Of a stretch of DNA of 64,000 nt, positions 1 through 58,709 are shown piece after piece. A program made the position numbers and the translations under genes. Within the stretch, counting starts at the first letter, position 1; every line of letters starts with the position of its first letter. Source of the stretch: Amphiscolops sp. MND2022 (taxonomy: Eukaryota); assembly GCA_964187785.1 (NCBI GenBank), contig OZ076409.1, positions 2,854,001-2,918,000 of the forward strand. Direction: 5' to 3'. The notes under the pieces are model-generated. The model ran no database searches. It was not told the DNA's origin and saw only the letters and a program-made list of their open reading frames with translations.

Positions 1-769
1 CTTTGTAATTGTCGGCGCCGCCTTAACTATCCATCAACACCTAAGTTAACACTTCTAACTTAAGAGCGCGGTCTCGAGTGTTTATTAACACTCATCAGAT
101 ACTTGAGGATTTCAAGTGGGTGAAGATATGACGATCAGCCACGCCGTCCACCATCAATATGCTCAGCCAATAAGAAAGCAGCAAAATTTCTCCCAAGCTA
201 ACATGGCTTCTCAAGGTCGCGAACCCGTATAAGGAAATGATATAAAATGACCTTGAAAATAATATAAAATAAAATAAAGCAAGATAAAATCATGAAATAA
301 TTTTGTAAAATACCAAAGTTTTCGAAATAAATAAAGGAAATGTAGATATCGCTGGCAGACTCTATCCACATAATGCCGTAAAATGTAAATAACTGTAAAT
401 TTGACACCAAACTGTATAGCCACGAACTCCAATCTTGACATCTTGTCACATTGCTGATTCGCCTTTTCAATTCTTTTACATTCAATTGCAGTCGTATTAC
501 TCTTTCTTCTTCGTATTTAATCACCAACATATTTATCCACTTTGTATTTAGTCACTTGTTAGTCTTTTAGTCGTGTTTATTTTATACATCTCTCCATTTC
601 TCCATCCCACTTTCATCTTGGGACTCAGCGTCCACACGTCCCCATCCTCGTGAGATTTCTCGGCTTGGTCCATCCAAACGACATCCAGTCCTTATTTTGT
701 ATTTCCCTCTCATCAACTCCAGCTTGTTGCCTTGAAGGAAGGAGTCTCAGACGTGGTTCATTGAGATTC

Positions 770-3700
770 ATGGCAGACTCAATCGACAATCCCTCCAGTG
801 GTCAAAATCAAACAGGTCAGTAGACTTTAGGCTTCTTTTCGATTTGTTGAAAATGAACTAATTTGAGGTTTGATCAGGACTCTCGTTTCGTTCACGTACT
901 TCCTGTCCAATAACTCAAGCATTCACTTGTGTTCAGATTTATCTACTTCCGGAAGATTTTAATGCGGTAAATGGATTCGTATTCAGGAAGAATTCCGCTA
1001 AATTTTATTTCCTTTTATTTAGGAATAACAACCGAAACCCAGGGCACGTCAGGCGTCCCGTCCGTGGATGACCGCCCAGGAGAGTCGGATCAAACAGTGC
1101 CAGGTAGTGTTACTACTACCAGTGAACCTCGTCCTCCTTCCAATTTCTCTGGCTCTAGTGTAGCCACTGAAGAGAGCCTCTCAACTTACGCCGAAAGGAC
1201 GATGAAGGCCATAATTGCTCGAGACCAACCTGGGTCTTCCGGAATCTCTGCTCTGCTTTCCTCACTAAACGAGCAGACTGAAGATACCTCTGGAGGAAAA
1301 GGTATTGAGCAGGGTCGGCCTGGCACTAGTTCACAAAAAGATGCTAAAGAAACGCATTGCACCAGTGTGGAGAAGGCCGTCTCCGGACAGATAGAAGAAG
1401 ATGATGCGAGCATAGTCAGCACTCCAGTCGTCGGTCGCTCAATCGATCCCGCACTGTACTACACTGACACAAGCGGCCCTGAGGACTTGATGGACAGCTC
1501 CGGCGTTGGTGGACCTGTCACTCCCCAATTTAAAAACATCCCAACCCTTGTCAAAGTTCCTAGACAGAGAGGAGAGTCAACTAGCGGGGATGAATCCTCC
1601 AATGGGCTTCCAGGGCCGAGTAACCAGCAGTCGAAGGCACCACGACAATTTTCTGCCAGTGGGAGGACTTTATTACGAAAACATTTCGTAGAGAAGGACC
1701 CAATTGTGATCCCCCGGAACCAGCCCGTTATTGCCCTTACTGAGAGCCAGATCCACACAGTCATGAAAACTATCTCGGACGAGACCATTTTATCTTCCTT
1801 CCACCTTATGAAATCTCTCCTCTTACAGGCCACGTCAGGGAAGGTTTTGACCAAGGAGAAGTGTAGGCACGTGGGTGGACATACTCCTGGGGGCAGACGA
1901 AGTCCCAGTAGCTCAGGAGATGAAACGACCGACGTTGATTCGCCCAATGAAGGATACACCAGTGGTGCTTTCAACACCGATGATGAGCCCGGTAGTTTAT
2001 CTTTCTGTTTGGAGAAAGAGACTGAAAGATGTGAGTCTCCTACTGCAACTTCTGCACAACCCTGCACCATTACAGAAAATTCAGCTGCAAGGCGAGATAC
2101 ATCCATGAGTCCTGGTAGTAACTACAGCATAGGGGATTATGCCCCACTATCCAGCCTCGTCCCGAAGCCTGGTAAGGCCATGCTGCAAAAGAGTCCCCCT
2201 CGTAAACGTAGAAAGTACATGGGAAAACCGGGTAAAAGTATGAAAGAAGCCTACTTTAAAGGCATCCTTTGGACAAAGACATTCGTTACTGGCCCTCTTG
2301 ATCCTGCACACAATCAGTACAAATTCTACTGTAGAATTTGCAAGAGTAATGTTTCAATTCGCTCTAAGGGTGCAAAGGAAATCGTACGCCATTACCAAAC
2401 TGAGTCCCACCTAAGGAAAGACCAGAATTGGAGATACACACATCTCAAGAAGGTTGACGCGATCACAGGCATCACGACTCATCAGGTTCGAGGGAAAAAT
2501 GGAGCCATCCTTACACCATTGGAACTCGAGAAGGAAAAACCGTTTTTTGAGAATGCTCCTCTTGTGGATCTTGGTGGAGAGTTCCCCTTTTATGAAGAGT
2601 ACTTAGCACGTATGGAGGGACGACGGACCACTAGCGACTCACGGGACGCTACGCAGATTGTCTTGATTGGGACAATGGTTCCAGTAAGCGGAGATCTCGC
2701 GTTACTCCAGACTCTGTGGACACAGATTGGAATTCACATGGACCATCAGGAAGCCTTTTTGCCGTTAGACTGGGGTTCAGCTAAGCTAACCGTAAGTTGT
2801 TTTCATGTCTTGAGATGTAGGGAGAGGCCTTTTCCAAAAATCATCTTTTCCTTCCGTTTAGGCGATTTTCCATCATATCTTCATTTGTGGAATCGAGGAC
2901 ATCTCACAACAGATTGTGACTAGCGACATGTATTCCTTGGAGTTTGAGACCATGGGGCGTTTGCGAGTGATGTCAGTCCGTTTCTGGAAAGGAGATACCC
3001 TGGTACGGGTTCAAATGCACCAGTGTCCACTCGCCCAGGGAATGCCTGGAAGTTACTTTTCTGGAGCTTCACGACTACTATCGATTGCGTCTTCCAAGCC
3101 AAAGTTGGTCAGCGTGTCTGGATGCCCTGCCCCCGTTGTTCAGTCATTTGATGACTGTGAGGACTTTCTTTACGGCGTCCAATACCCTTTTCGGTTTGAC
3201 GTTTTTTCCTTGCCGACCATCATGCACCAAACTGATGCTAATGTATTCGGGACTGTGGACATCTTCTCACAACTGAAATTCTTGGTTGTGTCTCTTAGCG
3301 GGGTCCTTGTACATTCCTGGACAACTGAGGCTCCAGAGCTCACCAAGGTCAGTCCTCCTTGTCACGGTTCTAGCACTTCAAAGGAAATTCTAAAAGGCAT
3401 AATAATCTGTGTTATAGGCAATCGAAGCTTGTACCTTTGAGATATCCCAGATCCCCGCCATCTGTTCGGAGTTGATTCTCAACTGGGGGTCTGTGTTGGA
3501 CTATCTTACTAGGAACGCTCCATCAAATGCCATGCAGGGGGTAAAGGACGCGGTTAGTATAAGCATTCCTTTCCTCCGTGATACCAGTCAACATATAGTC
3601 TTTGAAGCCCTGGATTGGAGAAATTTAAATTCAGAGACTAACAACGACTTGTTCTATTTTAGCCACAAAGTCTCGAGTGGACAATCCTTTCGGACGAACT

Positions 3701-5059
3701 GTACCCTGCCAGGCTGGAATTCTTCGGCCGACTGGTCCGGGATTGTAAGTAGCGTTAATAGTCTCTAGCCTGGTCACTTGATTTATTTGATGTAATTACG
3801 CAGTTCGTCTCTATTGTATTGGTCTGATGGTTTGACTGTCTTAGAGTCCACTTCTAGATCATTTCTGACAGGCTAGATTTCAAGGCAGCTTCCTCTGTTT
3901 AGATAACAAGTGCTTCAGTCGGAGCATGATGAAACACAGGGACTCGGGCTTTTTCACCTTCGGAGAGTTGTGTCGTTACCTGCGGAAACTGTGCAGTCGA
4001 GCCATCCTGCCGAAGCATACCCCGGCCGATAATGACTGGTCAGGCTTGTTGCAACTTTCTTTGGATGATTGCCGAGAACTGTCCTGCCGTGATTTCCTCT
4101 CTCGCCTCAAACTGAAGTTCGATTTAGAAGCGGCCTCCGAAGCTAAAGCTAAGAAGGAGAACAGTGGGAAGAAGAACTTGACTGCCATCCTTGGCGGACT
4201 TACAGAGGCTGTGAGGGACACGTTCGCCACTCAAGCACGCAGTTACATCGTGTTCGTAATTGATTCCCTTCTCAAGGACATTCGGTTGACAGCTGGTATC
4301 GTTCGCGGTCTGGGCAGTTTCGACCTTACTGTACTACAAACACAGCCAATGGAGCAGGCTTTATTTTGTTTCCGGGCTTTATTCCATAGTTTCCAAATTC
4401 GAGGATGGGTCCAGGAGAATGAGGAAAGCGAGTACCGGGAGGAATATGTTGAACTCCTCGATCATTTACGGCATTCCTGTGGGCCTCTCAGGACTCCCGA
4501 GTCCGTCCCTGACATGGTCGACCTTTTAATTTCAATGCCAGCCTTACGTAGCAGGCCTCGTCTACTGCATTTGTTCAGACTCAGCTGTTTATGCCTGACT
4601 GAGATTAGCCCTGATCTGCCTCCAATCCGTTTTCAGGGAGTTGATTCCTCTGACCCTAACTGCCGGTTGGCCAATATACTTCGACCCGCACAGTCTTATT
4701 TGGCTGTAGTACCCAATTCCGTGACTTCCTGCGTGACTGAGGCAGCCCTCAGTAAATTTCATGATCTCGAGATGCGATTTGATTCTGGAAATGTTCCTGG
4801 GGACCCATGGGCTCATGTGGACGCTTTCGGTCAAAGCAAGTACTATAGGGCCTTGTTAACTGCCTTCAAGACACAAGGTAACGAAGTTGGTGTAAGCAGA
4901 GTTATCCGGAGTCGCTCTTCTTCTGTCGTCAACGAAGGCTTCGATTCGACTTTCCGGTCTCCTGGGAAATCCGTTAAGCTGGCTCGTGATGGAGTTATTC
5001 CCACCACAGAAGTTGCCAAGACTGTGAAAGAGTTGCAGGGAAGATCCGCTAAGCCTTAA
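770..5059 (+). CDS. Antisense 6-exon accessory gene of element A (~1224 aa): S/T-rich N-terminus, C2H2/BED-like Zn finger, degenerate hAT-transposase-like body. Exons 770-815, 1023-2791, 2862-3347, 3418-3552, 3663-3744, 3903-5059
   Basis: Five GT..AG introns (donors GTCAGT, GTAAGT, GTCAGT, GTTAGT, GTAAGT) join ORF-track pieces 971, 2916 and 3926 and part of 3472 into one 3675-nt frame. Zn finger FYCRICKSNVSIRSKGAKEIVRHYQTESH. Homologous to the minus-strand gene in element C. Confidence 0.85.
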
Positions 5060-5205
5060 ATGTACATAGAGTACATTTGTTATTCTAGACTTTTCATTTG
5101 TAAATTTCCAATTCTGTTTTTTGTTTCAGTATTTATATATTTAATTTCTTTTGAGTCAAAGAAGTCAGAGTAGTCCTAGTAAAAAGCATGCCATCTCAGG
5201 CAAAA

Positions 5206-5211
5206 AATAAA
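5206..5211 (+). terminator. Candidate poly(A) signal of the antisense gene
   Basis: AATAAA ~150 nt after the stop at 5059, just before the convergent pol stop at 5237. Confidence 0.5.
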
Positions 5212-5236
5212 TAGGGACATAATTTAACATTTCTGA

Positions 5237-8200
5237 CTAGTATCTGTATTCATCAGTGAAGTTGGGGGTGGGGTTAGGTCGAAGATTATATTTCCCTCCT
5301 CTAGGGCTAGAAGTTTCTTCATCATTTCCATTTTCCGATATTCCGGGCACGGTAATATCTACGCCTCCTTTTGAAGCAATTTCCGTATTTTCTAAATCAT
5401 TTGTGACGTCATTTTCATTTTGCGTCCTACTAGGCGATTCGCTCGGAAGGGACGACGCGTCACGGCTGCTGGCCGATCGTGGCCTTACTTCATTCTCGTT
5501 GACGTCATCATCATTCATTCTCTCACTGCTGCGTTCACTTTCGTTTACGCTGCTGCTTTCATTCTCGGTGACGTAATAGTCGATTTCTCCGTTCGCGGCG
5601 TCCTGTGGTAGACGCGTGGCCGTGTGTGGCCAATCATCTGTCTTCGGCTCGAATAGCTCGTACTCAAAGTCTGCCTCCCATGAGATGGTATACAAATCAT
5701 CTTGCGGTATTACTATTTCTTCGTCGGGCTGTAATTTCTTCTCTTCGTATTTGTCCTCTAATGGGGCATTTGGAACAAATTTTTTGAGCCTGATCCGGTG
5801 CAAGATTTGCGTTTTATTCGTATTTAAACGACGCACTATATAATTGTTATTTGGTAGAGTTTTTTGAACGACAAAAGGACCAATCCATCGGAAGTCCCTG
5901 AATGGTATTTTAGATCCTTGGCTATCCGCCTTCGGTTGGAGAACAAAACAGTAGTCTTTCTCCTGTAGCGGAGCCGCTTTGGCCTTGCGGTCGTAGTACT
6001 CTTTGTACTTTAAATACGACTGCATAATATTCTTTTTGGTTTGATCAATGAGGATCTGCGTCCTCTGCTGCAATTCTTCCGCGAATTCAGTCGTCGGTAG
6101 GAAATTTTTGTTAGGATTATTTCCTAATTTGTGATCCAAGACGTTGTAGGGAATTCGTCCATGAAAGACTTTGCTAGGCTCACAACCAATACTAGCGTGA
6201 TAAGTAGTGTTATAGTTAAGCACAGCTAGTGGTAAATATTTGTGCCATTGACGACGGTATTCTCCTGAGGCCATCTTTAGGTTGGTTTTTAAAGAGGCAT
6301 GTGTCCTTTCAAGTTTACCAATAGTTTGCGGATGTTTAGTAGTGGCACACTTCAATGTGATCCCCAGTATTGCAGTAATTTCTTCTAAAATTTTTGATGT
6401 AAATGCGGATCCCTTGTCCGTGATGAGTGTTGTTGGCAAATACGAATGTTTCGTCATGATGTCAATTATCACCTTGGCTACGTTGGTGGCTGTTGCCTCA
6501 ATTAGCGGGTAGGCGAATAAATATCTTGAAAATACATCTATTGCCGTCATCACCGTTTGGTATCCGCCGCTAGTTGGTAAATTTGGCAATAAATCAATTT
6601 GCATGGCATCTTCTGGGCCTAGGTCCCATTCAGGTAAATTCAGTAATTCTGGGGTGATTACTGTGTTGGGGACCCTTTTGTCCTTGGCACATATTTCACA
6701 GCCTTCTACCCATTTTTTGACGTGTTTTGCAATTCCGGGGTAGTAATATTTTTGGCGAATTTCCTGTAGCATCTTGGAAATGCCCGGATGTCTATGTGCC
6801 GTGCCATGTATTGCTTGTAATAATTCGTTGAGCAAATGCTTTGGCAATAAGATTTGATGATATTTGACCTGTCCGGTTTCATCGTAGTACTGCCGCGTCA
6901 CTATCTCGTCTTTGAGGACTATTCGGTCGATGTTGTTCAAGTAATACTTGTACCGAATATCCTGTTGGAGGATTTCTTCAGAGTATTCTTCGTTTTGAAG
7001 TTTTGCCCTCAATTGGAGGAGAGTCGGGTCTTTGGATTGTTCAAGTAGTATCTGATTTGTTCTTCTTAATTTCTGTGTGAAATTAGTGATCTTTTCGACA
7101 GCATTTTCTGATATAGCGTCAATTTGGATTGCTGTCTCAGGGACTATGAGTCCCTTTTTGGATTGTTTTTTCCGTTCCCAAATCTGTTCTTCTGTTTCGT
7201 TGTCCTCTTCAGTGAAGAAAATTTGCTCTTCCTCTGATACGCCGGCTGATTGGACGTTGACCTCGATCGGTCTAGTTTCTACGTCTTCTCTTATCTTCAG
7301 GACCAATTTTTCAGTAGGGTCCATTTCCATTCGGGACAAGTAGTCTGCCGCTGTATTGTTTTTGCCTGGAATGTGAGCTATAATGAAGTTGAATTGAATG
7401 ACAAAATCACAAGCATTCCAGAGAGGCGGTGGAATTATCTTTGTCTGGAAGAACCTTGTGACCGATTTGTTATCTGTGAGGATAATCACGGGTTGAGGTG
7501 TTCCCCAGAAGATATGTCCGAACTCCTTAAATGCATAATATATAGCTAGGAATTCCTTTGCATATATCGACATTTTGAGTTGAGAAGGCGTGAAAGTTTT
7601 GGATCCATATGCAATCGGCGCATAGGACTTTTTAACAGAAGTGTATTTTTGATTTGGGTCATCTTCGGTCAATATGGCGTAACCGGCTGCTGTAAAACTC
7701 GCGTCGGTCATAAGGACCAGTTGTTTGTTCGGCAGAGGTTGTTTCAACGCCAATTGACTACATCGGTCTAAATCGCAGTTGATCTCATTAAATTGTTCAA
7801 CTAGCTCTTGCGTAACTAGTACTTTTTCATCCTTTTTGAGCAATTGGAAGAAGGGAACTAGTTTTTCGGATAGCCTTGGAATATAATTCCTGTAGTAATT
7901 GAGGAAACCAAGGTAGCGTTGTAAGGCCTTCTTGGACTTTGGGAATTTCGTCTTTTCCAAGAAGTTAATGATTCTTTCTTTTTGGGGTTTTACGCCTTCA
8001 GGTGTAATAGTTCTCCCAAGAAAGTCAATTTCAGTAGCGCCGAAATGGCACTTGTGCATGGACAATTTCAATCCTGCTTCTCTGATACATTGGAACGTTG
8101 CTCTTAAGTTGACGATAAGCTGGTTGGCGTCTGTCGCCGCAACACCAATATCGTCCACATATTGAGCACATTGGTCTGCTTTTATAACACGATCCAAGTA

Positions 8201-10345
8201 TTCCCTCATGAAACTGGAGAAGGCCGACAGGGCTCTACTGAGTCCTTGGGCTAATCTTCTATATGCAAATGTCCTGCTGGCAAAGTTAAAAGCTAGCATT
8301 TCAATCGATTTCTGGTCCGCCATGGGTAGGCAGTGGTAGGCCTGGGAACAGTCGAGTTTGCAGAAGAGCTTTTTGCCTGCCATATGTTGCGCCGCATCCG
8401 TTAGGGTACTGACTGGGTGATTGTTGTTGATATAATCGTCTGAGATGAGATTATTTATTTTCCTCAAATCAACCAACAGTCTCAATTTCCCATTGGGCTT
8501 TTTCTGCGCGAAGATGGGACTGGCATACTTTGAGAATGGTAATGTCGTTATAATACCATATTTATGAAGTAACGCCAGTTCGACCAATATGTCCTCTTTG
8601 AGGTTGACTGGGGTGGGTAGGCTCTGACTGTAAGCAGGTGATTCGTCTTTTGGGGTCAGTTTGACCGTAAATTCCTCATTGATTCCAATGTCAAATCTAT
8701 GACGAGCAAAGATATCATGGAATTCCACTAATAGAGTTTCTATTTGTCTGATTTCATGTTGTTGTAACATTGAGTCCTTCCAATCAAAATTGCTGAGGAA
8801 TTTTTGACGAGATTCCGCATCGTCGTGCGGGTTGAGTTGTTCTAAACTTTGCAGGTTTCGTAATTCTTTAAGAATTCTTTGTTGTATTGGGGTATGAGTC
8901 GTTTCGTCCCCTGGGTTTTCAGGCGTCGGGAACCAATATTGTTCGTATTGGTCATTATTTCTGTTAGCTTTAAGAAGGCTACTTATATAATAAATAGCGT
9001 CGTCTTCATTTTCATTCAGTAAGTGCCAGGTGGACACTGGGTCTATTGGCCTGACGTGTTTCATCTGTTCAGGGGTCATCACTGAGAAGTTTGCAATGTG
9101 CATCCCTTTCTTTATTTTATAGGGTTGATCAGTGAAATTGTTAACGTGTATTCTCATAGCCCCTTCGTGTAGTGTGACTATGGCGGCGCAGAAGGTTATG
9201 TCGCCTTCTTCGTGCAGAAGATCGCTGGGTTGCAATATGCCCGTAACTGCATTTTCTGCGTAAATTTGTGATTGAATAGGTATGACCACATGGTCATTGG
9301 GCGGAATTGTGACATCCTCAGGATTGAGGATGGGTTCCAAAACATTTGAGTATTTATGGTCAGCCGTCTTGAGTTGCATCGAAAAATAGGGGAAGTTGAG
9401 TATACCTTGGCGCATATCCAGGACAGTGTGGTTCCTTTGAAGGAACATTAGTCCAATTATGGGGCTTGACAGTTTTTCCATTACAATGAAAATTTCGTGA
9501 AATTCTATGTCGCCCACTTCGAATTTTAGTTCGACTGTGCTCTTTGGGGTTTCTAAGTCTCCATTTGCGACCATTATTTGGAAAGGTGGGGCAGGACCTT
9601 CTTTTACAATGGATTGAGGGGCCAATAGGCGTATTTTCCTGAGGTCTGCCTCCGGGATTGCACTGGAGTGAGCTCCAGTGTCTATCAGGCCGTCTAGAGT
9701 TAATTCCCCAAAGTCCATTGGGAAATAGAGCATTCGTCGTTTGAATTTAAGTCCAAGGTTTGTTGAAAGGGGAACGTATGGTAATTCTCCTTCTTTTGTC
9801 ACTAGGAGGTGTAAGAAAGCTGTCTCGTCTAAAAGACTATTAGGAGCCTTGTGGTCCTCCTGTGTGTGTATGGCGTCTACTTCTTGTATAGTTGCCTCAA
9901 AGTTCGGCTGCCAAAGATCAATGAGGGCCCGAGACAGTGTGTTATCTTCAATGTCTGGGTCGTCCTCGTCGTCAGTTGGGGGGTAATCTTCATTTCGAAA
10001 TTGTAAATTGGTTTTGTCATATAGTTCTTCGTCCCAGTATGGGTCTTTGCCATACTCGGGGTCATAGTATTGAGGGTTATAATCTTCGACAGTTTTTAAA
10101 GGGCGAAAGTGAGTTTCCAAGTCGTTGCGGTTACTGTTCCGTCGATATAAGTATGGATGATCACTGTGGATGATATATTGAGTTTCTCTGCGGGCGTCGG
10201 CCATCTGCTGCTGCCAGACAGTCGATGGCATCCCTGTGGTGTCGTTTTGAGTTTGTTTATATGTAATGTTTGCAGGGTCAGATATGACGTACTGTCGTAC
10301 TGACATCGTGTTACATATTTGGAGTCGTGGCGAAATTAGTTTTTT
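5237..10345 (-). CDS. pol: Element A pol (protease, RT, RNase H, integrase), expressed by -1 frameshift from gag
   Basis: LIDTGAHSS protease; QYVDDIG RT; LMTDAS...TDNKS...ADYLSR RNase H; HGTAHRHPG...CEIC plus QIDLL/TDKGS/LERTH integrase; WIGPF. Frame is open back to the slippery site (KKLISPRLQICNTMSVRQ). Confidence 0.96.
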   Translation of the reverse strand, partial: KKLISPRLQICNTMSVRQYVISDPANITYKQTQNDTTGMPSTVWQQQMADARRETQYIIHSDHPYLYRRNSNRNDLETHFRPLKTVEDYNPQYYDPEYGKDPYWDEELYDKTNLQFRNEDYPPTDDEDDPDIEDNTLSRALIDLWQPNFEATIQEVDAIHTQEDHKAPNSLLDETAFLHLLVTKEGELPYVPLSTNLGLKFKRRMLYFPMDFGELTLDGLIDTGAHSSAIPEADLRKIRLLAPQSIVKEGPAPPFQIMVANGDLETPKSTVELKFEVGDIEFHEIFIVMEKLSSPIIGLMFLQRNHTVLDMRQGILNFPYFSMQLKTADHKYSNVLEPILNPEDVTIPPNDHVVIPIQSQIYAENAVTGILQPSDLLHEEGDITFCAAIVTLHEGAMRIHVNNFTDQPYKIKKGMHIANFSVMTPEQMKHVRPIDPVSTWHLLNENEDDAIYYISSLLKANRNNDQYEQYWFPTPENPGDETTHTPIQQRILKELRNLQSLEQLNPHDDAESRQKFLSNFDWKDSMLQQHEIRQIETLLVEFHDIFARHRFDIGINEEFTVKLTPKDESPAYSQSLPTPVNLKEDILVELALLHKYGIITTLPFSKYASPIFAQKKPNGKLRLLVDLRKINNLISDDYINNNHPVSTLTDAAQHMAGKKLFCKLDCSQAYHCLPMADQKSIEMLAFNFASRTFAYRRLAQGLSRALSAFSSFMREYLDRVIKADQCAQYVDDIGVAATDANQLIVNLRATFQCIREAGLKLSMHKCHFGATEIDFLGRTITPEGVKPQKERIINFLEKTKFPKSKKALQRYLGFLNYYRNYIPRLSEKLVPFFQLLKKDEKVLVTQELVEQFNEINCDLDRCSQLALKQPLPNKQLVLMTDASFTAAGYAILTEDDPNQKYTSVKKSYAPIAYGSKTFTPSQLKMSIYAKEFLAIYYAFKEFGHIFWGTPQPVIILTDNKSVTRFFQTKIIPPPLWNACDFVIQFNFIIAHIPGKNNTAADYLSRMEMDPTEKLVLKIREDVETRPIEVNVQSAGVSEEEQIFFTEEDNETEEQIWERKKQSKKGLIVPETAIQIDAISENAVEKITNFTQKLRRTNQILLEQSKDPTLLQLRAKLQNEEYSEEILQQDIRYKYYLNNIDRIVLKDEIVTRQYYDETGQVKYHQILLPKHLLNELLQAIHGTAHRHPGISKMLQEIRQKYYYPGIAKHVKKWVEGCEICAKDKRVPNTVITPELLNLPEWDLGPEDAMQIDLLPNLPTSGGYQTVMTAIDVFSRYLFAYPLIEATATNVAKVIIDIMTKHSYLPTTLITDKGSAFTSKILEEITAILGITLKCATTKHPQTIGKLERTHASLKTNLKMASGEYRRQWHKYLPLAVLNYNTTYHASIGCEPSKVFHGRIPYNVLDHKLGNNPNKNFLPTTEFAEELQQRTQILIDQTKKNIMQSYLKYKEYYDRKAKAAPLQEKDYCFVLQPKADSQGSKIPFRDFRWIGPFVVQKTLPNNNYIVRRLNTNKTQILHRIRLKKFVPNAPLEDKYEEKKLQPDEEIVIPQDDLYTISWEADFEYELFEPKTDDWPHTATRLPQDAANGEIDYYVTENESSSVNESERSSERMNDDDVNENEVRPRSASSRDASSLPSESPSRTQNENDVTNDLENTEIASKGGVDITVPGISENGNDEETSSPRGGKYNLRPNPTPNFTDEYRY

Positions 10346-12018
10346 GAGTCCGTTTTACGTGGGTTTGATTGGCTCGAAGATGCAGTTTCGGGGTTAGTTG
10401 ACTTTTTAGACAACTTTTCATCGCCGGAGTTTTCATCGGCTTTATCTTCGGGTCTTGTCCTTTTGGGACGTAAATGTGCTCCAGCCCCTTTCCAGCATCT
10501 TTCAACAGGGTGATTTTTCTTTCCGCAAGTAGGACATTCTGGGTATGTAGGACGTTGGGGCTTTTTGCCATTTTTGTCCTCCAGTTCTTTCTTCTTTTTC
10601 AATTTGGGACAGCTCTTATAAAAGTGGCCTGTGGCTTTACAATAAGAGCATTGTGCGTCCTTATTAGTATTTATGCCATTAGAGAGCAGATTGTTGTTAC
10701 TGGTGGACGCAGAGGCCATTGTGGCGATTGGCAAATCGTCTGACTCTTCTAATGCGTTGAGTTCAAGCTCTCTTTCAAGATGAGCGACGATTTCCTCATA
10801 TGTCCCGTTCTCCAGGCGGGCCATATTGACAGATCGTTTTAATTTTGGAGGCAGTTTTGCATACAATAAGCTGTCAATCATGCTTTTTGCATTCTCACCG
10901 AAAGCTTTTTCTGCCCCCTGGTTCAGTTCTTCTAAGAAATCCGGCAATTTCATGGTATTCGGATCGAAAGTCAGCCGATGCCATTTGTGTTTTGCCGTTG
11001 CTTGGGATTCCGGTTTAACATATTTTCGCCGGAATATGATTAGCACATCCTCGAGTGTTTGACGGTTTATTGAGTTTATGTTTCTGAAAGTCTGCAGGGC
11101 CCCTTTTCTGAGCAATGAGTGAAAATGGTTTATTTTCATTTGCTCTGTCATGGCCGGTTGCATTTTGATCATTGTGTGGAACAAATCTTCAAAGAGTTCG
11201 AATTTCTCACTCTTTCCGTCAAACGTCATAGGCGTTGTTTGAACAGGCCGGATAGTCATCGTTTGTGGTTTGTTTTGCAAATTAACTAGTACATCAGCTA
11301 ATCTATTGAGCGGGTCTTGAGGTGGCTCTGTGACCTCTGGTTCTGGCGCTGGCAGAGTGGTGTCCAAAGAGACATTGTGGTTAGATTGCTGTCTCTCTAG
11401 GTTCGGGATTGAGTGGATTCGTCCAGTGAGAAATTCAGGTATAGGTTGCTGGGCTTCGTTAGCTCCTGTCACCATGTAAGAGCCACGTCCCGTGGTGTCT
11501 CTCAGATCACCTACGGACCGTGAGTCCTTTTTCAATATCTTAGTTCTTAAGCCAGATGAGTCATTCCTATCCTCCTGACTACTAGGGGACGTACTGGCCT
11601 CAGTGTCCCTGTTCCCTGAAGACGACATTGAACTCACAATGTTTTGTATTTCTGGTAACACCTTCTCTGTTATTGCGGTACTGACTGCTCTATTTATTTG
11701 GCTATGTACCATGGCCATCATAGAATCCATTTCTTGAGACAACCTAAGATTAAATTCATTTGAAAAGGTTTCAAAGGATTGTCTTATGTCATATCGACCA
11801 TGAGGCTCATTTCCTTGAATGAAATCTCCAAGATCGTTTCTTGAGTGACTACCAATTCCTATATCACCATGAATGGAAGATTGGTCTATTACATCTGCTA
11901 ACTCTCTTTCCAAAGGATTTTCACTCCCTATCATCACGTCTAAATTATCCATATCGGACAACATGTCCATCTCTTTGGATTTTCTAGCTTTCGCTTTCTG
12001 TCTTCTTGTGGAAGGCAT
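10336..12018 (-). CDS. gag: Element A gag (560 aa); first 181 codons lie inside the 5' LTR
   Basis: Capsid-like FDGKSEKFELFEDLF...LLRKGAL; knuckles CSYCKATGHFYKSC and CPTCGKKNHPVERC; homologous to element C gag. Confidence 0.93.
   Translation of the reverse strand: MPSTRRQKAKARKSKEMDMLSDMDNLDVMIGSENPLERELADVIDQSSIHGDIGIGSHSRNDLGDFIQGNEPHGRYDIRQSFETFSNEFNLRLSQEMDSMMAMVHSQINRAVSTAITEKVLPEIQNIVSSMSSSGNRDTEASTSPSSQEDRNDSSGLRTKILKKDSRSVGDLRDTTGRGSYMVTGANEAQQPIPEFLTGRIHSIPNLERQQSNHNVSLDTTLPAPEPEVTEPPQDPLNRLADVLVNLQNKPQTMTIRPVQTTPMTFDGKSEKFELFEDLFHTMIKMQPAMTEQMKINHFHSLLRKGALQTFRNINSINRQTLEDVLIIFRRKYVKPESQATAKHKWHRLTFDPNTMKLPDFLEELNQGAEKAFGENAKSMIDSLLYAKLPPKLKRSVNMARLENGTYEEIVAHLERELELNALEESDDLPIATMASASTSNNNLLSNGINTNKDAQCSYCKATGHFYKSCPKLKKKKELEDKNGKKPQRPTYPECPTCGKKNHPVERCWKGAGAHLRPKRTRPEDKADENSGDEKLSKKSTNPETASSSQSNPRKTDSKN
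10339..10345 (-). promoter_or_regulatory. -1 ribosomal frameshift heptamer A_AAA_AAC (element A)
   Basis: TCA AAA AAC TAA ends gag; the -1 frame is continuous with pol. Confidence 0.88.
11461..11474 (-). promoter_or_regulatory. Primer-binding site of element A (TGGTGACAGGAGCT, tRNA-Leu-like)
   Basis: Follows ...TTACA directly. The first 12 nt match those after the duplicated LTR of element C. Resembles tRNA-Leu PBS TGGTGTCAGGAGT. Confidence 0.8.
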
Positions 12019-13108
12019 AAGAGTTTATTGCAAGAGGTAAGAATTTAAATTAAGTTCTCAGGCTTGCAAACAGAGTATGTTGAAACGATTTTAACAAATT
12101 TGAGTATTACGGTATCAAGGAAATTGAAAAAGTCCTTGGGACCTAGGGTCCACGGTATATATACTCAGGTTTACATGACTTGCAAAATAATGAGGGTCAC
12201 GTTCTAAAAATAGCCTTCACAACTATCTAAAAATAGCACCTACTATTTATAGCCATGAAGGCGGCATGACGAAAGGGTCACTTCAAAAGGGGTGATTTTA
12301 TTCAAGCGCCTTCAACAATTCCATATATAGAAGGATTGTAGGTCCAAGCATCCCTCAAGGCCTTTCGTATGTAAGGTTAAGCAACATTTCATGCAATTGC
12401 ATTTGATCAACTATAATTTACATGTACCAACTCATTAATCTAAGTATTCATGTAAATTATTAATATCTAGCATCAAATGGTACAAATGGTTCAGTAATCT
12501 TCATCAAAACGAGTATTTATTAGAAACACCAATCATAGCCTTTATTTACCACTGTAAATTGCACTTTACTTCAATTTGGACTCAGTGTCCATTTACCGTA
12601 AATAGGCAGCAAATTACTGCTAGCTGACGGCGCGTGGCCTTTGAGTCCTTTAATTTAGAGTACTGCGCACAGTGAATGAAATGAATGGCGTGTTCTGATT
12701 GGCTAAGAATTTGAACGGACTGCGTGTCCAGCGAGACAGGAAAGGAAACATTTGAACTCGTTTCCTTTGCCTGTACGCCTTGGTGTCCAATTTCTTAGCT
12801 AATACATTTAAACATACATTATTTACATGCATCAATATATCAAAATCAACTTCAAAGTTTTCAAATAACCAAATGGTATTTCCGATTACTAATTTGCACA
12901 AGATTATATATATAAGGCTGTCAAAACTGAAAACAGAATAACAGACATGCCATAAAATATTACAAATTCAGTTTGAAGTTTTTGTCCCGTCATGACAATG
13001 GGACGCATGGTCCTTTCTTCTAATTTATTGTTAGAGTACCTGGGAGGGCGCGAAAACAGCTGTAATTGATGGTGTAAAAGTTCCCATCGCAGGCGGGAGC
13101 CTGCGACA
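11475..13108 (-). repeat. 5' LTR of element A (~1.63 kb; TGTCGCAG...CTTACA)
   Basis: Inner end fixed by the PBS. Outer end inferred from similarity to the element C LTR start (TGTCACAGCCCGCTCCCG). TATA-like TATAAATAG at 12243-12251 and AATAAA at 12024-12029 (minus). TSD cannot be checked. Confidence 0.7.
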
Positions 13109-14394
13109 ATTGTCAACACTGCAAGAACTTTTTACTTGACTATATAGGTTGTCTGACACTTTTCCTAAGATTTTGAAGATTTTGGGAGATTGTTTGATTT
13201 GTTTTCAGCTTGAAACTTCCGCCGTTGAGCTGATATTTATTCAGATTTTACCAAGGGCTATGCAAAATTGGCGGGTTTCATGAGCTGCATAGACAACCTA
13301 GAGGACGAAAACCCGCAAAAGTTTTATCCTTTTTGCGTGTAAAGTGAACGTTTTGTATGAATATACGTCACTTTTGACGAAAACAAACTCATATTCACTG
13401 AAGCAAAAAAAAATTGCAAAATGAAGAAACATCTATAGCCCGATTCTTCCTCTTTTTCCGTGAAATCCTGGGTTGAAAAGGTTTGAGAAGTTTGTCACGA
13501 TTTGGTGAAAGCTGAGCAAACCACTAGGTTTTATAGTCTTTTGACCGAAAATTCATCGGGACTAAATTAGAGCGTAAAACCGAAAATCATCAAAACATCA
13601 GACTTTCATTGAGCAATTCAACAGGTTTGAGTTTGATTTTTAGATACCGTATCGTACCAGAAAAGCTGCTAAAATGAACTGTTGATGTTGTTATTAGCGA
13701 ACCAAATAGATCTCCAGCGGAACTAATTGACGAAAAAATTCAATCATTTTCCTGTTCGATATTGGAGGTAACATCAAATTTTTGAATAATTTCGACCTCA
13801 AACAATTCATAGCTCCCTAACGGAAGTCTGATGATCTCAAAAACCCTTAAATTTTTGTTAACAGTTTCTCAAACTTATTCTGTCTTCATAATACGCAATC
13901 CTCACCACGCGCCTCACGTTACGCACGTTAGCGCCTCCGTGGTAAATTAGTATCTTGAGAAAAAAACTAAAAATGGGATTAGAATTCCTTAGTCGATACT
14001 TCTGAAAATTTCGCATGTGCAGGCCTGCATGTTAGGTAAATTTTTCATGAAATCTTGAAAATTCGGTAGGACTTGTATGGTAAACTTTGTACGATAGCAC
14101 TACAGTTCTCACTATTGCTGCAAATAATCCCGAAATTATTTTGCGATCAAATTTTATTCACAATTTGATTTCTCAACTACTCATCTGATGTAAACGCGAA
14201 TTAGATTCTCAAATTGCACGCTGATGGGGCTAAATTCTTGTAGTAACGTGGTTACCCTGGTTGGAACTGCTTGAATTTTTCACAAGTTTTTGTAGTTTAC
14301 CAAGCAAATTTTGATAATTTTTAAAAATTCTCGAAGAAACGTCCTTGCCATAAAACTTCACTGGTTCACTTTAATTCTGTCAAGCTGCCTATAA

Positions 14395-16466
14395 TGTGGA
14401 ATTTTTAGTTATTGGCGTCTACGAAAACCCATTGTTTTTGCGCGAAGCACGTACCATCAACAGAACTAGGTTAATTACGTTTTTAAACCGTCGTAATAGT
14501 GAAAACAGCTGAACAGGCTGACAATAGCATGCTTCGATATGGCTTATTTGGCAAACCAGGTATTTACTTAGTAAACGAAACTTCTTAGGCAAAATTACCG
14601 AGCTAGTGAGTGACGTCAGCGAATAAATTGTTCGAATCGGCTAAGTCAGAGTTGAAACTCTGAGAGCAAATTTTACTAAGTCCCACTTTCGACCGAAAAT
14701 AATCTAAGATACGCTAGGAAAAACCAATCATCAAATTTCTGCAACCCCCCCAAACGGTTTTTCTCAAAGACTATTTATCGTAGAGACTTGAAATTTGGCA
14801 CAAGTATACCTGAGCTGTCATGCTACTGATCTATAAAAATGGAACTGAGCCGAGACCCCCCAGTCCCGGGCTACTAGCACTGGAAGTGACCTAGGTCGAC
14901 CCACCCCACGAACTCGTCGGCGAGGCACGAATTAAGTCATATTATATATGGAATTGATAGCCCATAGGATATTAGGCCGTTTGCGTACATTTTTGGAACC
15001 CTACGACGCGCGTAGGAGGAGTATGGACCCTATGTATATAAGCCCCGAAAATTATGTAAATAGCCACCGGATGACCCGAAGATTATGAAACTTACCCAAG
15101 TTGTTCACATAGTAACCCTAGGTAAAACACATGAAAGATACATTAATCGGTCCACCACGCGCGGAGTAATGTTTGTTTAAGGCACGCGGGACCGGACCCG
15201 CGAGCCCGACCGATAAAAGACATTTGACCTTGGCTTGTAATACATCAAACGAACCGGAATGATGAATGTAGTCGATTTATTACGTGAATGAACTCGTATT
15301 TATAACCCATGCGGGGGTAGTCGCCTTAAGTAAACAAACTACACGCATATCATGTAGCTTGAAGACCATTGACCCTAGGACGATATAACATGGCATGTAG
15401 CAACCTTAGATGACAACAAATAACTTCAAGGTCACCCAGGGACCTCAAGGTGTAACCCCGGAACGTATGGAAGAACTTGCGATAAAACATGTAAATCAAC
15501 GTCTTTAAGTGATAATTAATGCATTTCAGTCAGGCGAGGGAATTCGCGATGCACCGCGCTCCGATTGATAGAAAAGTACCCCTCAAACGAGGAGAGCATG
15601 TACACTATGTAATTGAAGGTCATTGAGCAATCGTCTCGATATTAGAAACATCTCGGGTGACTTGATATATTATTGATAAGTGAACTTTGGACAACTAATG
15701 TTGAATTATTTGTCGGTGGCGGCAAAGAATGTTTAGCTGAAGTATAATTAGAACCGACTGCCATGCCATAAAAGGAATAGTCAACATGAAGGTAAACTCA
15801 TGCAAATTTAAGACGCCGACGCCCTGTATATAACTAAAATGTCAAGTATGATAGAAAGTAAAGATGAAACCACCCAAATTGCGGGCGATGAACGAATATA
15901 ATTGAGGCGGAATTGCAATATACTTGAATAGACAGAACCGAGTTAGAAAGCTGGAATTAAGTTGAGTCTTGCGGAGACAAGATACTTGTTCGGAATAACA
16001 CTCGCGCTTCTCAACCGAGTAAGAGAGCTAGAAGAAAGTTGAGTCCCGCGGAGACAAGAGACACTTCTAGATTACGTTGTCGCCAGTAGAAGAGATTAAC
16101 TGACAATTCCGGGACTTGTGATTTTGGTTGAAGTTGGAGCTTCAACAAGATTGAAGTGCGCCTAACGCACCTGGCTGAATCGTGGATTCGATTGTTGTTG
16201 TACCCTTTTACTGAGAATTGTAGATAGTACTTGATGAAGATTAGTTAGTTTGACTGATTAAAATTACTTAGTGTTATTGCTTTCGTTAAAGAAGTAATTT
16301 CATTATTCCTTTACTCGAAGTTTTTGTAAGACGCGAGCCGATAGAGCAAATCTGGAGAGAGAAATAGACAGTAACTTCAAGAGAATTGGCTAACTCACTG
16401 AAACAACTTTTTTGTCTGTTAGGTTCGGTAAAACGCTCTCCGACCCCCGAATTGGATTTTCTTACA
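14395..16466 (+). repeat. Element B 5' LTR (2072 bp)
   Basis: TGTGGAATTTTTAG...TTACA, repeated at 21516-23112. Confidence 0.93.
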
Positions 16467-16568: not shown

Positions 16569-17291
16569 ATGGATACTGAGGAGAGAGGTCTGGGGAGAGA
16601 CCAAGTGGACGTTGGAGAGTTCCCGAGTAGCAATTCCCCCAGCTGGAGAGGTTGGCTGCTGAAGTTGTGGAGCACGGCCGAGCAGTTAAATTGGAACTAC
16701 CGAACGTGTTGTTAGATGATGTCGGAATCTCTCAGGGGAGCTGTGTTTAATGCATTTTTGGAAGCCAAGCTCTCTGTTGAAGTAGAATTGGACGACCCCG
16801 GTGTGATTGACGTTCTGAGCAGAACATCAGAAATTATTGGCGTTTCTCAGTTCGAACTTATTGAAGAACGTTTTCTTCTGGAGCTTCGACAGGAGAAAGA
16901 AGAAAATATCTCCCACTATGCACGAAGGGTGGGCGCATTCAAGACGCTTGCCCTGGAAACATTCAGTGATGAGCATTGGGCCTCCAATTGTTTGTCAGGC
17001 TTGAACGACGAGTGCCTCCAAGATGTTGTGAACGATCATGCGAAAATTACCCTGATTGTTCGAGAGTTGGAACGCCAAGATTGTTTGGAACACCAGCTTA
17101 ATGGGTTTTGGGCCACAATGCATCGAGTTCGACGTCGTCACACCGAGCTTCGTGCTCAAGAAGAAATAATGCCGACAGACAGTAACTTAAGTGTTGCCCA
17201 AAGTAGAGGAAGTCTTCAGAAACTTACGATCATGTCGAAGGAGAAGCAGACGAGAAACGTTGCTGACGTGAACAGTTACAATGCTGCCTAA
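16569..17291 (+). pseudogene. gag: Decayed gag of element B
   Basis: ATG 16569 is in frame with ORF 16716 across one TAG (16713-16715). WRGWLLKLWSTAEQLNW...SLRGA and LRQEKEENISHYARRV are capsid-like patterns. Confidence 0.6.
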
Positions 17292-18270
17292 TGTTAGAAC
17301 GAAGAAACGAAATCAGAAAACATTGCGCACACAAACGCTGGACGTGCGACGAGGTCAACATCAGCATGGAAAGCGTCATACTGGGGAGGTGAAGACAGCA
17401 ATGACGATTGTGATGATCACGTTGGAGACCACGAAGGTACTGCGCACAGGCAGCCTCGACGAAGCGAATGGTGCAGCTATTCCAGTGATGAAGAGTCGTC
17501 AGATGATGAGAAGGACGATATCTGGAACGAGCTGGATAGTGAAGATGACAGTTATTGTCCGTACCAACCACTGACCTTAGAAGAAGCTCTTAGACAGATC
17601 GAAGAAGGGAAGAAAACGAGGCTCGCTGGTAAAAAGACAGATAACCCTACACTGCATGAATCAAGATGCGGCGGGATGTCAGGCCCAGTACTTGTGAGTG
17701 GATCAATGGAGGCACTGAAAGCTTGAGACCAGCCTGTCAAGTAGGCTCAGGAAAAATCAGGGTTGCATCTGTGTGTTTTGAGGGTCGAATCCAGCTGACT
17801 GCTCAAAAGTTCTTGGTCGTTGAATCGTAGGAAATCATGACCGGAAGCGTCGCAGTGATCTATTGGAAAGAAGCAGTGTCTAGAGAAATGAAAGTAATGG
17901 CCGTCGACAGAGTGGAAGCATACAGAGCAAAGATGACTCCGGAGAGGTGCTCCTCAGTCATGATGCCAATCCAAGAAACTTTAATGCGGAAGAATGAAGC
18001 TGCTGAGCCTTCATTACTATTCAACGTGAGCCCTGGAGAAGCAATTGTTCAACGTGTTTGGGTCGAGTAGGATGTGGAGATGACCGTTCAGATGAATCAC
18101 ATCAATTGGTCAGAACGTGGCTTGGTTGAATGCGCAGTAGTTCGACTGAATCGTGAAGCAGCAGCTGCAGATATTGAACAAATGAGTGCTGAGAGAACTA
18201 CGCGTTCCAGCGAAGGATGTTCTTTCATACTGGGAGTACCAACGGAGCTCTCGCAAAGAACTGATGAAAC

Positions 18271-19503
18271 GTGGGAAGTCGAAAGTGGGTTGAGTGTGTT
18301 TTCAAACCCACAGAAGCGCTAGCTGGTTTCAAACTAGATTATGTGAAGCAAGACAATCAGAACGGGATGCATGTGCAGAAGACAAAAGCAAAAAGGTCGT
18401 CGCACGGAGTTCAGACCTTTGTTGTTGACGATGAACTGCAATGGGACCCTCGACACAGTACTCGAGTTGAGGGGGCAGCGTCGCAGTGGGTGCCATACAG
18501 CAACGCCGATATCCAACTGATAGAAGGAAGCGGTGCTAGACTCAAGAGACAAGTTTGGACTTCAGTTCTGTGGCTCATGACAGCCTTGTGGGTGCAGGTA
18601 AACGTTATGTCTGATCGTGGAACGTCCTGGCCTTGGAACGTTTTACCCAGAAGTTCCAAGGGATTGTATCATGCGCTTCGGCGTCGGTCTGTTAATTGGG
18701 AACAAGCTGTGTCGCTGAGGGATGAGGAAGACTGGATGCAGCACAGGCATTGTCTTTCCTCCCGAGGCTGCTGCGAAGCTACGAATTGGAGAGACGGTAA
18801 GGCAACCTACACCTTCGAACAGAGTGATCGAAGTTGGATTCGACACAAAGGAAATCCTGGGGTTGAGCAGATGCTAATGTATACTGAATGTCAAAACGCG
18901 AAAACGAGTGTTCTCATTGTCAATATGGAGAACAGCCACTCAGAAATGATTGAGAAGTTGAACGAAGTCTCCCGAGACACTCAATGTGGACAAATTCTAG
19001 AAGGGCAGCCTCACAGTTCGCCCTCACGAACCACATTCACAAAATTATCGAGGATTTGTCCGAAGTATCCACGCCATGAGGCAAAGATGACATCGGTGCG
19101 TGAGCTCCGAGAGACAAGATGTAAATCACTACAAGAACGAGCGAGAGAAAGTCAGCTTAATGCGTTGAACACAACTGGTGACCATTGGCATCCATCAAAG
19201 AGTCCCACGATTGGTGACGAGCACAGGACTGCGAGGGAAGTCTACGACAGAGGAAAAATGAAACTCGACGGTGGCGACACAGGCCAAGTGATGCGCAAGG
19301 CGATGTTAACTCCAGAAGGGAAGTGGCTCACCTACCCGCGAGCTCCATGCGACTACCAGAAGAGGCCTGTTTCAAGACGTGTCTGTGACAGTGGTCATTG
19401 CGAGGCTGGTGCGGAACAAAAACGAAATATGGCTGTGCCAAGGGCTGATTGTTGCAGCTGGACCGGTCACAGGAAGCACGGAAGGTGGAAAGCGGAGGAT
19501 TAA
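18271..19503 (+). pseudogene. 410-codon ORF, possibly a heavily eroded pol remnant
   Basis: Position after gag; faint integrase C-terminal patterns (EVYDRG...GDTGQV...SWTGH); no catalytic motifs. Confidence 0.3.
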
Positions 19504-21515: not shown

Positions 21516-23112
21516 TGTGGAATTTTTAGTTATTGGCGTATACGAAAACCCATTGTTTTTGCGCGAAGCACGTACCATCGACAGAACAATGTTAATTACG
21601 TTTTTAAACCGTCGTAATAGTGAAAACAGCTGAACAGGCTGACAATAGCATGCTTCGATATGGCCTATTTGGCAAACCAGGTATTTACTTAGTAAACGAA
21701 ACTTCTTAGGCAAAATTACCGAGCTACTGAGTGACGTCAGCGAATAAATTGTTCAAATCGGCTAAGTCAGAGTTGAAAATCTGAGAGCGAATTTTACTAA
21801 GTCCAACTTTCGAGCGAAAATAATCTTAGATACGCTAGGAAAGCCAATCATCAAATTTCTGCAATCCCCCCCAAACGGTTTTTCTCAAAGACTATTTATC
21901 GTAGCGACTTGAAATTTGGCACAAGTATAGCTGAGCTGTTATGCTATTGATCCATAAAAATGGAACTGAGCCGAGACCACCCACTCCCGGGATATTAGCA
22001 CCGGAAGTGACCTAGGTCGACCCCCCCATGAACTCGTCGGCGAGGCACGAAATAAGTCATATTATATATGGAACTGATAGTCCATAGGATATTAGGCCGT
22101 TTGCGTACATTGTTGGAACCCTACGACGCGCGTAGGAGGAGTATGGACCCTATGTAAATAAGCCGCGAATGTTATGTAAATAGCCACCGGATGACCCGAA
22201 GATTATGAAACTTACCCAAGATGTTCACATAGTAACCCTAGGTATAACACTTGAAAGATACATTAATCGATAATTAATATTAGAAACATATCGGGTGACT
22301 TGATTTATTATTGATAAGTGAACTTTGGACAACTATTGTTGAATTATTTGTCGGTGGCGGCAAAGAATGTTTAGCTGAAGTATAATTAGAAGCGACTGCC
22401 ATGTCATAAAAGGAATAGTCAACATGAAGGTAAACTCATGCAAATTTAAGACGCCGACGCCCTGTATATAACTAAAATGTCAAGTATGATAGAAAGTAAA
22501 GTTGAAACCACCCAAAATGCGGGCGATGAACTAATATAATTGAGTCGGAATTGCAATATACTTGAAAAGACAGAACCGAGTTAGAAAGCTAGAATTAAGT
22601 TGAGTCTTGCAAAGACAAGATACTTGTTCGGAATAACACTCGCGCTTCTCAACCAACTAAGAGAGCTAGAAGAAAGTTGAGTCTCGCGGAGACAAAGGAC
22701 ACTTCTAGATTACGTTGTCGCCAGTAGAAGAGATTAACTGACAATTCCGGGACCTGTGATTTTGGTTGAAGTTGGAGCTTCAACAAGATTGAAGTGCGCC
22801 TAACGCACCTGGTTGAATCGTGGATTCGATTGTTGTTGTACCCTTTTACTGAGAATTGTAGATAGTACTTGATGAATATTAGTTAGTTTGACTGATTGAA
22901 ATTACTTAGTGTTATTGTTTTCGTTAAAGAAGTAATTTTAATATTCCTTTACTCGAAGTTTTTGGAAGACGCGAGCCGATAGAGCAAATCTGGAAAGCGA
23001 AATAGACAGTAACTTCAAGAGAATTGGCTAACTCACTAAAACAACCTTTTTGTCCGTAAAGCTTCCAATCCGAGGTAAAACTCTCTCCGACCCCCGAATT
23101 GGATTTTTTACA
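21516..23112 (+). repeat. Element B 3' LTR (1597 bp)
   Basis: Copy of 14395-16466 with many substitutions; lacks ~490 bp equivalent to ~15150-15638. Confidence 0.93.
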
Positions 23113-58660: not shown

Positions 58661-58709
58661 CTAAGATAACTTCAATCACAAGAAGACACAAACTGTCACA
58701 AATCTGAGA

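Follow-up and report, generated by a model that had tools for sequence, protein, structure and literature searches.

The stretch of DNA analyzed here, 64,000 nt from Amphiscolops sp. MND2022 (GenBank assembly GCA_964187785.1, contig OZ076409.1, positions 2,854,001 to 2,918,000 of the forward strand), is referred to below as the window. Near its left end lies a Ty3/Gypsy retrotransposon, element A, which is read from the minus strand and carries a long gene on the opposite strand. This antisense gene occupies positions 770-5059 of the plus strand in six exons and faces pol of the element tail to tail, with 177 nt between its end and the pol stop codon. Its joined frame of 3,663 nt encodes 1,220 amino acids (aa) and a stop. 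An earlier reading of the window, made without database searches (the sequence-only reading), had proposed the tail-to-tail arrangement inside element A as well as six exons with five junctions, all of which we found; its figure of 1,224 codons had to be corrected to the length given above.

Element A is complete and very young, with a length of 15,804 bp. Completeness was judged after adding the 10 kb that adjoin the window on its left (locus L011), with which a pair of long terminal repeats (LTRs), a target-site duplication (TSD), a primer-binding site (PBS) and a polypurine tract (PPT) were all found. The 5′ LTR (11475-13108, minus strand) and the 3′ LTR, which sits outside the window (L011 7305-9006), have TG..CA ends; they match at 100% across 1,384 + 321 nt and, besides these identical stretches, differ by ~70 nt in length. 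The 5-bp duplication ATTGT is present on both outer sides of the LTRs, once at 13109-13113 and once left of the window. On the PBS side, TGGTGACAGG follows the 5′ LTR, and on the PPT side, AGGGGGAG precedes the 3′ LTR. The gag frame (10336-12024, minus strand), whose first ~183 codons lie within the LTR, contains two CCHC knuckles. The 1,705-codon pol frame (5237-10354, minus strand) has matches to protease, dUTPase, reverse transcriptase (RT), RNase H and integrase, with the Pfam order RVT_1, RT_RNaseH, Integrase_H2C2, rve. By its LTR ends, TSD, PBS, PPT, gag knuckles and order of pol domains, element A is a Ty3/Gypsy element. A further sense-strand open reading frame (ORF) of up to 297 codons, ORF3 (L011 8918-9811, minus strand), lies beyond the 5′ end of the antisense gene, ahead of the 3′ LTR, and runs through the PPT into the LTR.

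The exons of the antisense gene were read on the plus strand. Exon 1 (770-815, 46 nt) begins with an ATG at 770, ends at the donor AG/GTCAGT and is followed by intron 1 (816-1022). Then come exon 2 (1023-2791), exon 3 (2862-3347), exon 4 (3418-3540), exon 5 (3663-3744; ..SLEWTILSDELYPARLEFFGRLVRD) and exon 6 with the stop codon (3903-5059), and downstream of these a candidate poly(A) signal, AATAAA (5206-5211). Each of the five introns is GT..AG and keeps the frame, as read directly from the window and fixed by homologues; the same region of the plus strand (971-5059) is visible as four long successive open frames opposite pol. Homologue P0024 reads exons 4 and 5 without an intron, which fixes the boundary of exon 4, and P0011, P0056 and P0106 do so for exons 5 and 6; the splice sites of exon 4 are conserved among copies of the element. 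These homologues have in common ..SFEWSIL..ARLDLF..DF..CF.., as the sequence-only reading had proposed. An alternative model, with an exon 4 of 3418-3744 joined to position 3872, was ruled out by the homologues that do not have those introns.

Splicing signals were compared in seven diverged copies of the element (L012-L018), which were fetched with 10 kb of context each. In six of them AG precedes and GT follows the exon at every one of 21 exon instances, though the introns diverge. Between element A and L016, introns are 89-91% identical as against 94-96% for exons. Single introns (between exons 4 and 5, or 5 and 6) are precisely absent in some distant homologues, and a second lineage, described below, has a different set of introns, as expected of real introns. 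The antisense gene is a real six-exon gene, with introns predicted from these signals to be spliced. Antisense introns survive retrotransposition because they are read as CT..AC on the sense genomic RNA, which is therefore not spliced at them.

The 5′ end of the gene is less clear. The donor of exon 1 (815/816) is conserved in 7/7 copies, while exon 1 itself diverges strongly. Its ATG is present only in element A and L014, which makes the start codon ambiguous and counts against the gene model at this end. Element A and L014 do not have an ATG at the start of exon 2 (ATA and ACG, respectively), and L012, L015, L016, L017 and L018 have one there; since this segment is related between those two copies, element A and L014, the exon-1 ATG may represent a single event. 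An alternative in-frame ATG inside intron 1, at 971, is kept in 6/7 copies, as well as in P0212, a distant homologue. Toward its 3′ end (~855-1022), intron 1 has a block whose conservation among subfamilies exceeds that of the coding exons in the seven-copy alignment. By eye, this block has no codon periodicity; it contains the palindromic ACTTCCGGAAG and further GGAA-core words, which may resemble ETS sites. Upstream, a spacer between the divergently oriented ORF3 and exon 1 covers 1-769 and continues past the left edge of the window for ~190 nt, as far as the beginning of ORF3. Nucleotide identity of this spacer to the subfamilies is 74-80%, compared with 65-72% for coding exons of the same subfamilies. 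The spacer and the conserved block of intron 1 are a candidate internal promoter, perhaps a bidirectional one.

The second LTR of element A is not visible in the window alone, where no repeat was found within 1-16000, and on that view the antisense gene could have been a nested insertion peculiar to this copy, derived from a DNA transposon or a neighboring host gene. However, identical LTRs and a TSD enclose the gene, and in 7/7 other copies exon 6 is immediately followed by pol, encoded on the other strand. Exons 2-5 were present in 6/7 fetched copies (L013 does not have them within the fetched stretch), some of which are damaged, with exon 3 frameshifts in L012 and L017 and an exon 6 stop in L015. 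Genome-wide (1.07 Gb), scored matches to exon 6 numbered at least 105, with protein identities of 58-100%, and 86 of the 105 listed were free of stops. Exon 3 had at least 151 matches, nearly all spanning residues 1-162 or 2-162 within open frames that barely exceed exon 3 in length. Terminal inverted repeats (TIRs) around the gene were at chance level (2 inverted 9-mers vs 1.33 expected). The signs of nested insertion named by the sequence-only reading, namely TIRs or a TSD of the gene's own or its absence from other copies, were thus looked for and not seen. Given the LTR pair, the TSD, the copies next to pol, the homologue in a second element and the lack of TIRs, we consider a nested insertion so improbable as to be practically excluded. 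The antisense gene is part of the element and a feature of a clade of ~15-16 kb Ty3/Gypsy elements.

That homologue is found in element B, a second, diverged element on the plus strand of the same window (26.7-42.0 kb). Its 5′ LTR (26747-29111, plus strand) is 98.3-98.6% identical to its 3′ LTR (40102-42036, plus strand), and its gag and pol frames span 28604-34915 (plus strand). The antisense homologue lies at 35537-37834 on the minus strand, with a finger exon at 37163-37834 and a last exon at 35537-36430 that is cut short in the window copy. In tblastn, the finger region and exon 6 of the element A gene matched it in the same order at 23% identity (E 1e-5 and 7e-10). Genome-wide, at least 132 matches to the B-lineage last exon were obtained, most of them with open frames of 413-442 aa, and the intron set of this lineage (L038) differs from that of element A. 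A sense ORF of element B (39375-40205, plus strand), which leads up to its 3′ LTR and enters it, is the positional counterpart of ORF3 of element A. The latter is kept at 41-53% identity in 6/7 other fetched copies of the A clade. No sequence similarity between the ORF3s of the two elements was detectable, and Pfam gave no family for them at E<=0.001. By eye, both ORF3s have a hydrophobic run followed by Ser/Asp/Glu, resembling a SUMO-interaction motif.

Selection was assessed by the ratio of nonsynonymous to synonymous divergence (dN/dS) among the collected family copies, using only pairs with unsaturated synonymous divergence (dS). The values fell between 0.11 and 0.17: 0.11 for exon 3 and 0.16 for exon 6 between element A and L016, 0.17 for exon 2 and 0.14 for exon 6 between element A and L017, and 0.14 for exon 6 between L016 and L017. 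More distant pairs were saturated (proportion of synonymous differences, pS, 0.7-0.9), and the frames were still open. As judged from these comparisons, the antisense reading frame is under purifying selection, in line with the intact gene described by the sequence-only reading. It could be argued that the antisense transcript itself is functional, through double-stranded RNA or transcriptional interference, and that the frame is incidental; antisense transcription is listed as a possible regulatory role in the available part of one account of plant elements (PMC7264820). However, the low dN/dS over >1,100 codons, the frame-preserving introns and frames that stay open at 58-100% protein identity imply that selection acts on the protein. 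An RNA role could be additional, but as the sole explanation we regard it as very unlikely.

Among subfamilies, pol and the antisense gene have discordant histories. For element A and L014, pol dS was 0.23-0.25 vs an exon 6 pS of 0.71, and for element A and L018, pol dS was 0.20 vs an exon 6 pS of 0.85. The opposite was seen with L016 (pol pS 0.80-0.92 vs exon 6 dS 0.12) and L017 (pol pS 0.80 vs exon 6 dS 0.33). Synonymous divergence of the two modules was about ten-fold or more apart, in both directions, which shows that the antisense module was exchanged between gag-pol backbones. Breakpoints among L012-L018 were placed at ~5081-5214 and 5413-5633, that is, in the short interval separating the stop codons of the two genes or in the last part of pol. 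Such exchange may have come about by template switching among RNAs packaged together. One consequence is that classification of these elements into subfamilies by RT only would misdescribe them.

The protein begins with ~440 low-complexity residues rich in Ser, Thr, Gly and Pro, followed by a basic patch (PPRKRRK) and a CxxC-x16-H-x5-H finger with its CxxC at aa 452. Conserved W and F residues are present upstream of this BED-like finger, and ~140 aa after it complete exon 2. The domain encoded by exon 3 is followed by a helical domain of ~330 aa. All motifs quoted in the sequence-only reading are present in the spliced translation, including YSLEFE (aa 629), VSVSGC (688), SLEWT (811), YNKCF (836) and LSCLCL (1062). 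The region from the finger to exon 3 was modeled with P0215, a database ORF that reads through intron 2, and an alignment of 42 rows. In this model, exon 3 forms a strand-strand-strand-helix-strand-helix arrangement with a predicted local distance difference test score (pLDDT) of 70-86, in which YSLEFE is strand 1 and VSVSGC comes after strand 4; exon 3 is thus a predicted RNase-H-like core. The C-terminal domain of exon 6 was modeled as all-helical (pLDDT 78.8).

Several observations point to an origin of this protein among hAT transposases. With the model of the finger to exon 3, the first Foldseek match was Hermes (8edg_A, E 1.4e-3, 310 columns), and five of the first seven rows were Hermes chains (8edg_A, 2bw3, two chains of 8sjd, and 4d1q). 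In VIA-align, Hermes was also the top match of exon 6, over Hermes residues 356-601, below significance. The ten best named ESM-Atlas clusters all belonged to hAT-derived families, namely FAM200/ZBED5 RNase-like, GTF2IRD2-like, DUF4371 and EPM2AIP1 (score 0.84, which the tool treats as a lead only); no usable match was obtained there for exon 6. Because these are three kinds of method that address two separate parts of the protein and place them in colinear order, hAT ancestry is the best-supported lead. The resemblance to hAT transposases and the Hermes comparison suggested by the sequence-only reading are therefore partly borne out: an RNase-H-like fold is predicted, Hermes ranks first in Foldseek and ZBED5-type proteins appear as leads, but every one of these matches is below significance, including the Foldseek match by the tool's own line, and neither Pfam nor hhalign agrees.

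Other results weigh against this origin. The N-terminal model had a mean pLDDT of only 61 and represents the homologue P0215, not the spliced protein of the window. With this model in VIA, integrases outranked Hermes, which was absent among the 50 rows listed. At E<=0.001, Pfam gave no family for any exon, any homologue or a 734-aa ORF of the B lineage, and thus neither the hAT dimerization domain PF05699 nor BED; matches below threshold were to zinc fingers only (e.g., ZN292-like, E 0.002-0.004). Sequence searches of the PDB with three profiles returned nothing relevant. The ESM-Atlas score was in a range reached by a third of shuffled proteins. When the family profiles were compared by hhalign with six hAT transposases taken from this genome, all probabilities were <1.3%, the best local match being the finger on a hAT BED finger (P 0.044, probability 1.2%). 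TIRs and an 8-bp target duplication of the hAT kind were not seen around the antisense gene, although their loss is expected in a captured gene. Separately, DUF4371 (PF14291) had no match in this genome.

These negative results could mean that the accessory gene is real but derives its RNase-H-like core and finger from another DDE superfamily, a duplicate of the integrase or a host protein, in which case the Hermes and ZBED5-type leads would be due to chance. The hhalign probabilities, the missing PF05699 and BED matches and the shuffled-protein range of the ESM-Atlas score are what favor such a source. However, three unrelated methods applied to two parts agree on one superfamily, in colinear order (the finger and core with the front of Hermes, exon 6 with its residues 356-601), a helical domain after the core is the hAT layout, and the finger has the aromatic-then-CxxC..H..H pattern that is characteristic of BED fingers. 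We consider a source other than hAT somewhat unlikely, and the most likely origin to be a gene for a hAT-type transposase, or a host descendant of such a gene, that was taken up in reverse orientation.

Whatever its origin, the protein is probably not an active enzyme of the DDE type. As the sequence-only reading had noted, the acidic residues of the catalytic DDE (Asp-Asp-Glu) triad are absent: all A-lineage sequences have S-G at the position after predicted strand 4, and neither a SER.FS-like motif nor a conserved acidic residue was found at the C-terminal place. The canonical triad being absent, an active DDE enzyme is unlikely on the basis of sequence. This absence bears on activity and not on ancestry, since domesticated members of the hAT group also do not have the triad. 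A nuclease or transposase might still be active through non-canonical acidic residues, especially an E-x-E in strand 1, as an alignment of eight A-lineage sequences, 37-96% identical, shows no variation at E27 and E29 of exon 3. These glutamates leave a complete loss of catalysis unproven and thus also count against a non-catalytic factor. However, F and A take the place of the two glutamates in the B lineage (ORF of L038, by eye), S-G follows strand 4 throughout the A lineage, the C-terminal acidic residue is missing, and there are no TIRs on which such an enzyme could act. We think it highly improbable that the protein is still active in this way.

Taken together, the antisense gene is probably a selected, spliced accessory gene that encodes a predicted DNA-binding, non-catalytic factor of hAT-type origin. 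It would be transcribed away from gag-pol, from an internal promoter in the conserved region of the spacer and first intron, and the transcript would be spliced and then polyadenylated at AATAAA 5206. The protein is predicted to enter the nucleus and to bind DNA in a sequence-specific manner with no transposase activity, and it may act in trans for the element family. Among possible roles, which in the sequence-only reading were those of a transactivator, an anti-silencing factor or a targeting factor, we favor control over the transcription or the chromatin state of the element itself, on the analogy of the antisense ORFs of plant elements, for which such a role has been proposed, and the antisense proteins of human T-cell leukemia viruses (HTLV), for which it is known. 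Guidance of integration would be the second choice.

The gene is large, conserved, multi-exon and abundant and has a recognizable domain layout that hints at a DNA-transposase ancestor, which makes its origin and function testable. In public assemblies, 471 clusters (50% identity) matched exon 6 at E<=1e-3; among the 150 listed, none was longer than 418 aa and none was named, implying that the exons were called as separate ORFs. A search for homologous proteins with exon 6 at the "longer" setting found none, and a scan of JGI metagenomes with the exon-3 alignment gave no confirmed match. As its exons appear as unnamed single-exon ORFs in public collections, they will be annotated as host genes or fragments.

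Additional features were seen in elements A and B and elsewhere in the window. The gag frame starts inside the LTR in both elements, with its first 170-190 codons there (11475-12024, minus strand, and L011 7305-7922 for element A; 28604-29111, plus strand, for element B) and the PBS within the frame. The N-terminal gag peptides of the two elements are alike (MPSTRRQKAKARK.. vs MSTTRSQKRKNTQ..). An ATG also spans the junction of LTR and PBS in element A, so that there is more than one candidate Gag start. The dUTPase match in pol of element A (PF00692, 9074-9322, minus strand, pol aa 345-427) had an E of 7.5e-5 and 23.0 bits vs a cut-off of 22. Another LTR-retrotransposon pol, apart from those of elements A and B, is present at 59921-64000 (plus strand) next to a gag-like ORF (58665-59975). 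Between its protease region and RT, this pol has a Macro-domain match (PF01661, aa 375-437; E 2.7e-4, 21.3 bits vs a cut-off of 22), which by eye may resemble TARG1/OARD1-type macrodomains. A domain that binds or removes ADP-ribose would be notable within the polyprotein of a retrotransposon. An LTR-like pair of direct repeats (14395-15938 and 21516-22576) is 93-97% identical and 7.1 kb apart, and the two ORFs between them (16716-17291 and 18268-19503) had no Pfam match. The window also contains an 88-bp tandem repeat of four or more units (56946-57385), a pair of inverted repeats within 48795-55221 (170 nt, 6.1 kb apart, 91% complementary) and, by eye, a cadherin-like exon at 23524-24000, which suggests an animal host.

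The sequence-only reading knew of no Gypsy group with this architecture, a claim that does not hold, since plants and fungi have Gypsy elements in which an antisense gene is known to lie after pol and ahead of the 3′ LTR. As far as the accessible parts of two accounts go, additional antisense ORFs occupy this place in the plant Ty3/Gypsy elements Retand, Grande and RIRE2 and carry TRP28/PF04195 or SMC-like domains (PMC11963269, PMC7264820). Their origin is mostly unknown, and their dissimilarity to other transposable elements argues, in the portion of the text at hand, against a captured-element origin (PMC7264820), which is the leading reading for the antisense gene described here. In the same partial accounts, the plant elements resemble element A in the place and orientation of the ORF and in being unusually long, non-chromovirus-like Gypsy elements. 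Like the antisense gene, the plant ORFs occur in most copies and across species, with DNA binding or a nuclear location predicted and a regulatory role suspected. However, they are described as single ORFs and are much shorter, and neither text contains the word "intron". In contrast, the antisense gene has six exons, 1,220 aa, a BED-like finger and a predicted RNase-H-like core, and its sequence showed no similarity to the ORFs of plants. Among fungi, Boty-like Gypsy elements of Botrytis cinerea are said to contain an antisense gene, brtn, reportedly described by Zhao et al. in 2011 (Virology 417:248). It is likewise carried antisense inside a Ty3/Gypsy element, although in a fungal host. Element A differs from the plant and fungal elements in its extra sense ORF3, the transposase-like layout of its antisense gene and its apparently animal host.

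With respect to the protein, hAT transposases (Hermes, PDB 8edg/2bw3) and the hAT-derived host proteins ZBED5, FAM200, GTF2IRD2 and EPM2AIP1 have the same order of finger, core and helical domain as that modeled for the antisense protein, and the domesticated members have also lost the catalytic residues. The antisense gene differs from them in having no significant sequence or profile similarity to hAT, no PF05699, no TIRs and no 8-bp duplication. In addition, it is carried by a retrotransposon, whereas the hAT members stand as a DNA transposon or a host gene. In the full-text literature searched, with subscription journals and Repbase largely outside its scope, no multi-exon or transposase-like antisense Gypsy gene was found. 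The layout of an antisense gene between pol and the 3′ LTR is thus known, and its multi-exon, transposase-like version, of which we found no account, is apparently new.

Antisense genes are also present in deltaretroviruses, where HBZ of HTLV-1 and APH-2 of HTLV-2 are named in the part of one account that was available (PMC11963269). These, too, are minus-strand protein genes of reverse-transcribing elements that encode nuclear regulators, a role that is only predicted for the antisense protein. HBZ is spliced; it starts in the 3′ LTR and encodes a small basic leucine zipper protein, whereas the antisense gene starts ~1.8 kb inside element A, has five introns and encodes an unrelated protein. 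A broader scenario, which we put forward tentatively and hold to be possible but somewhat short of probable, is that an old and widespread Gypsy clade with four genes (gag, pol, the small sense ORF and the antisense gene) captured a reversed hAT-type transposase gene, disabled its active site and now depends on the resulting spliced DNA-binding factor, shuffled among its members by recombination. If true, this would be the first clear instance in which transposons of one class have domesticated another class's enzyme for themselves, and an intron-rich counterpart to the antisense genes found in HTLV and in the Gypsy elements of plants and fungi.

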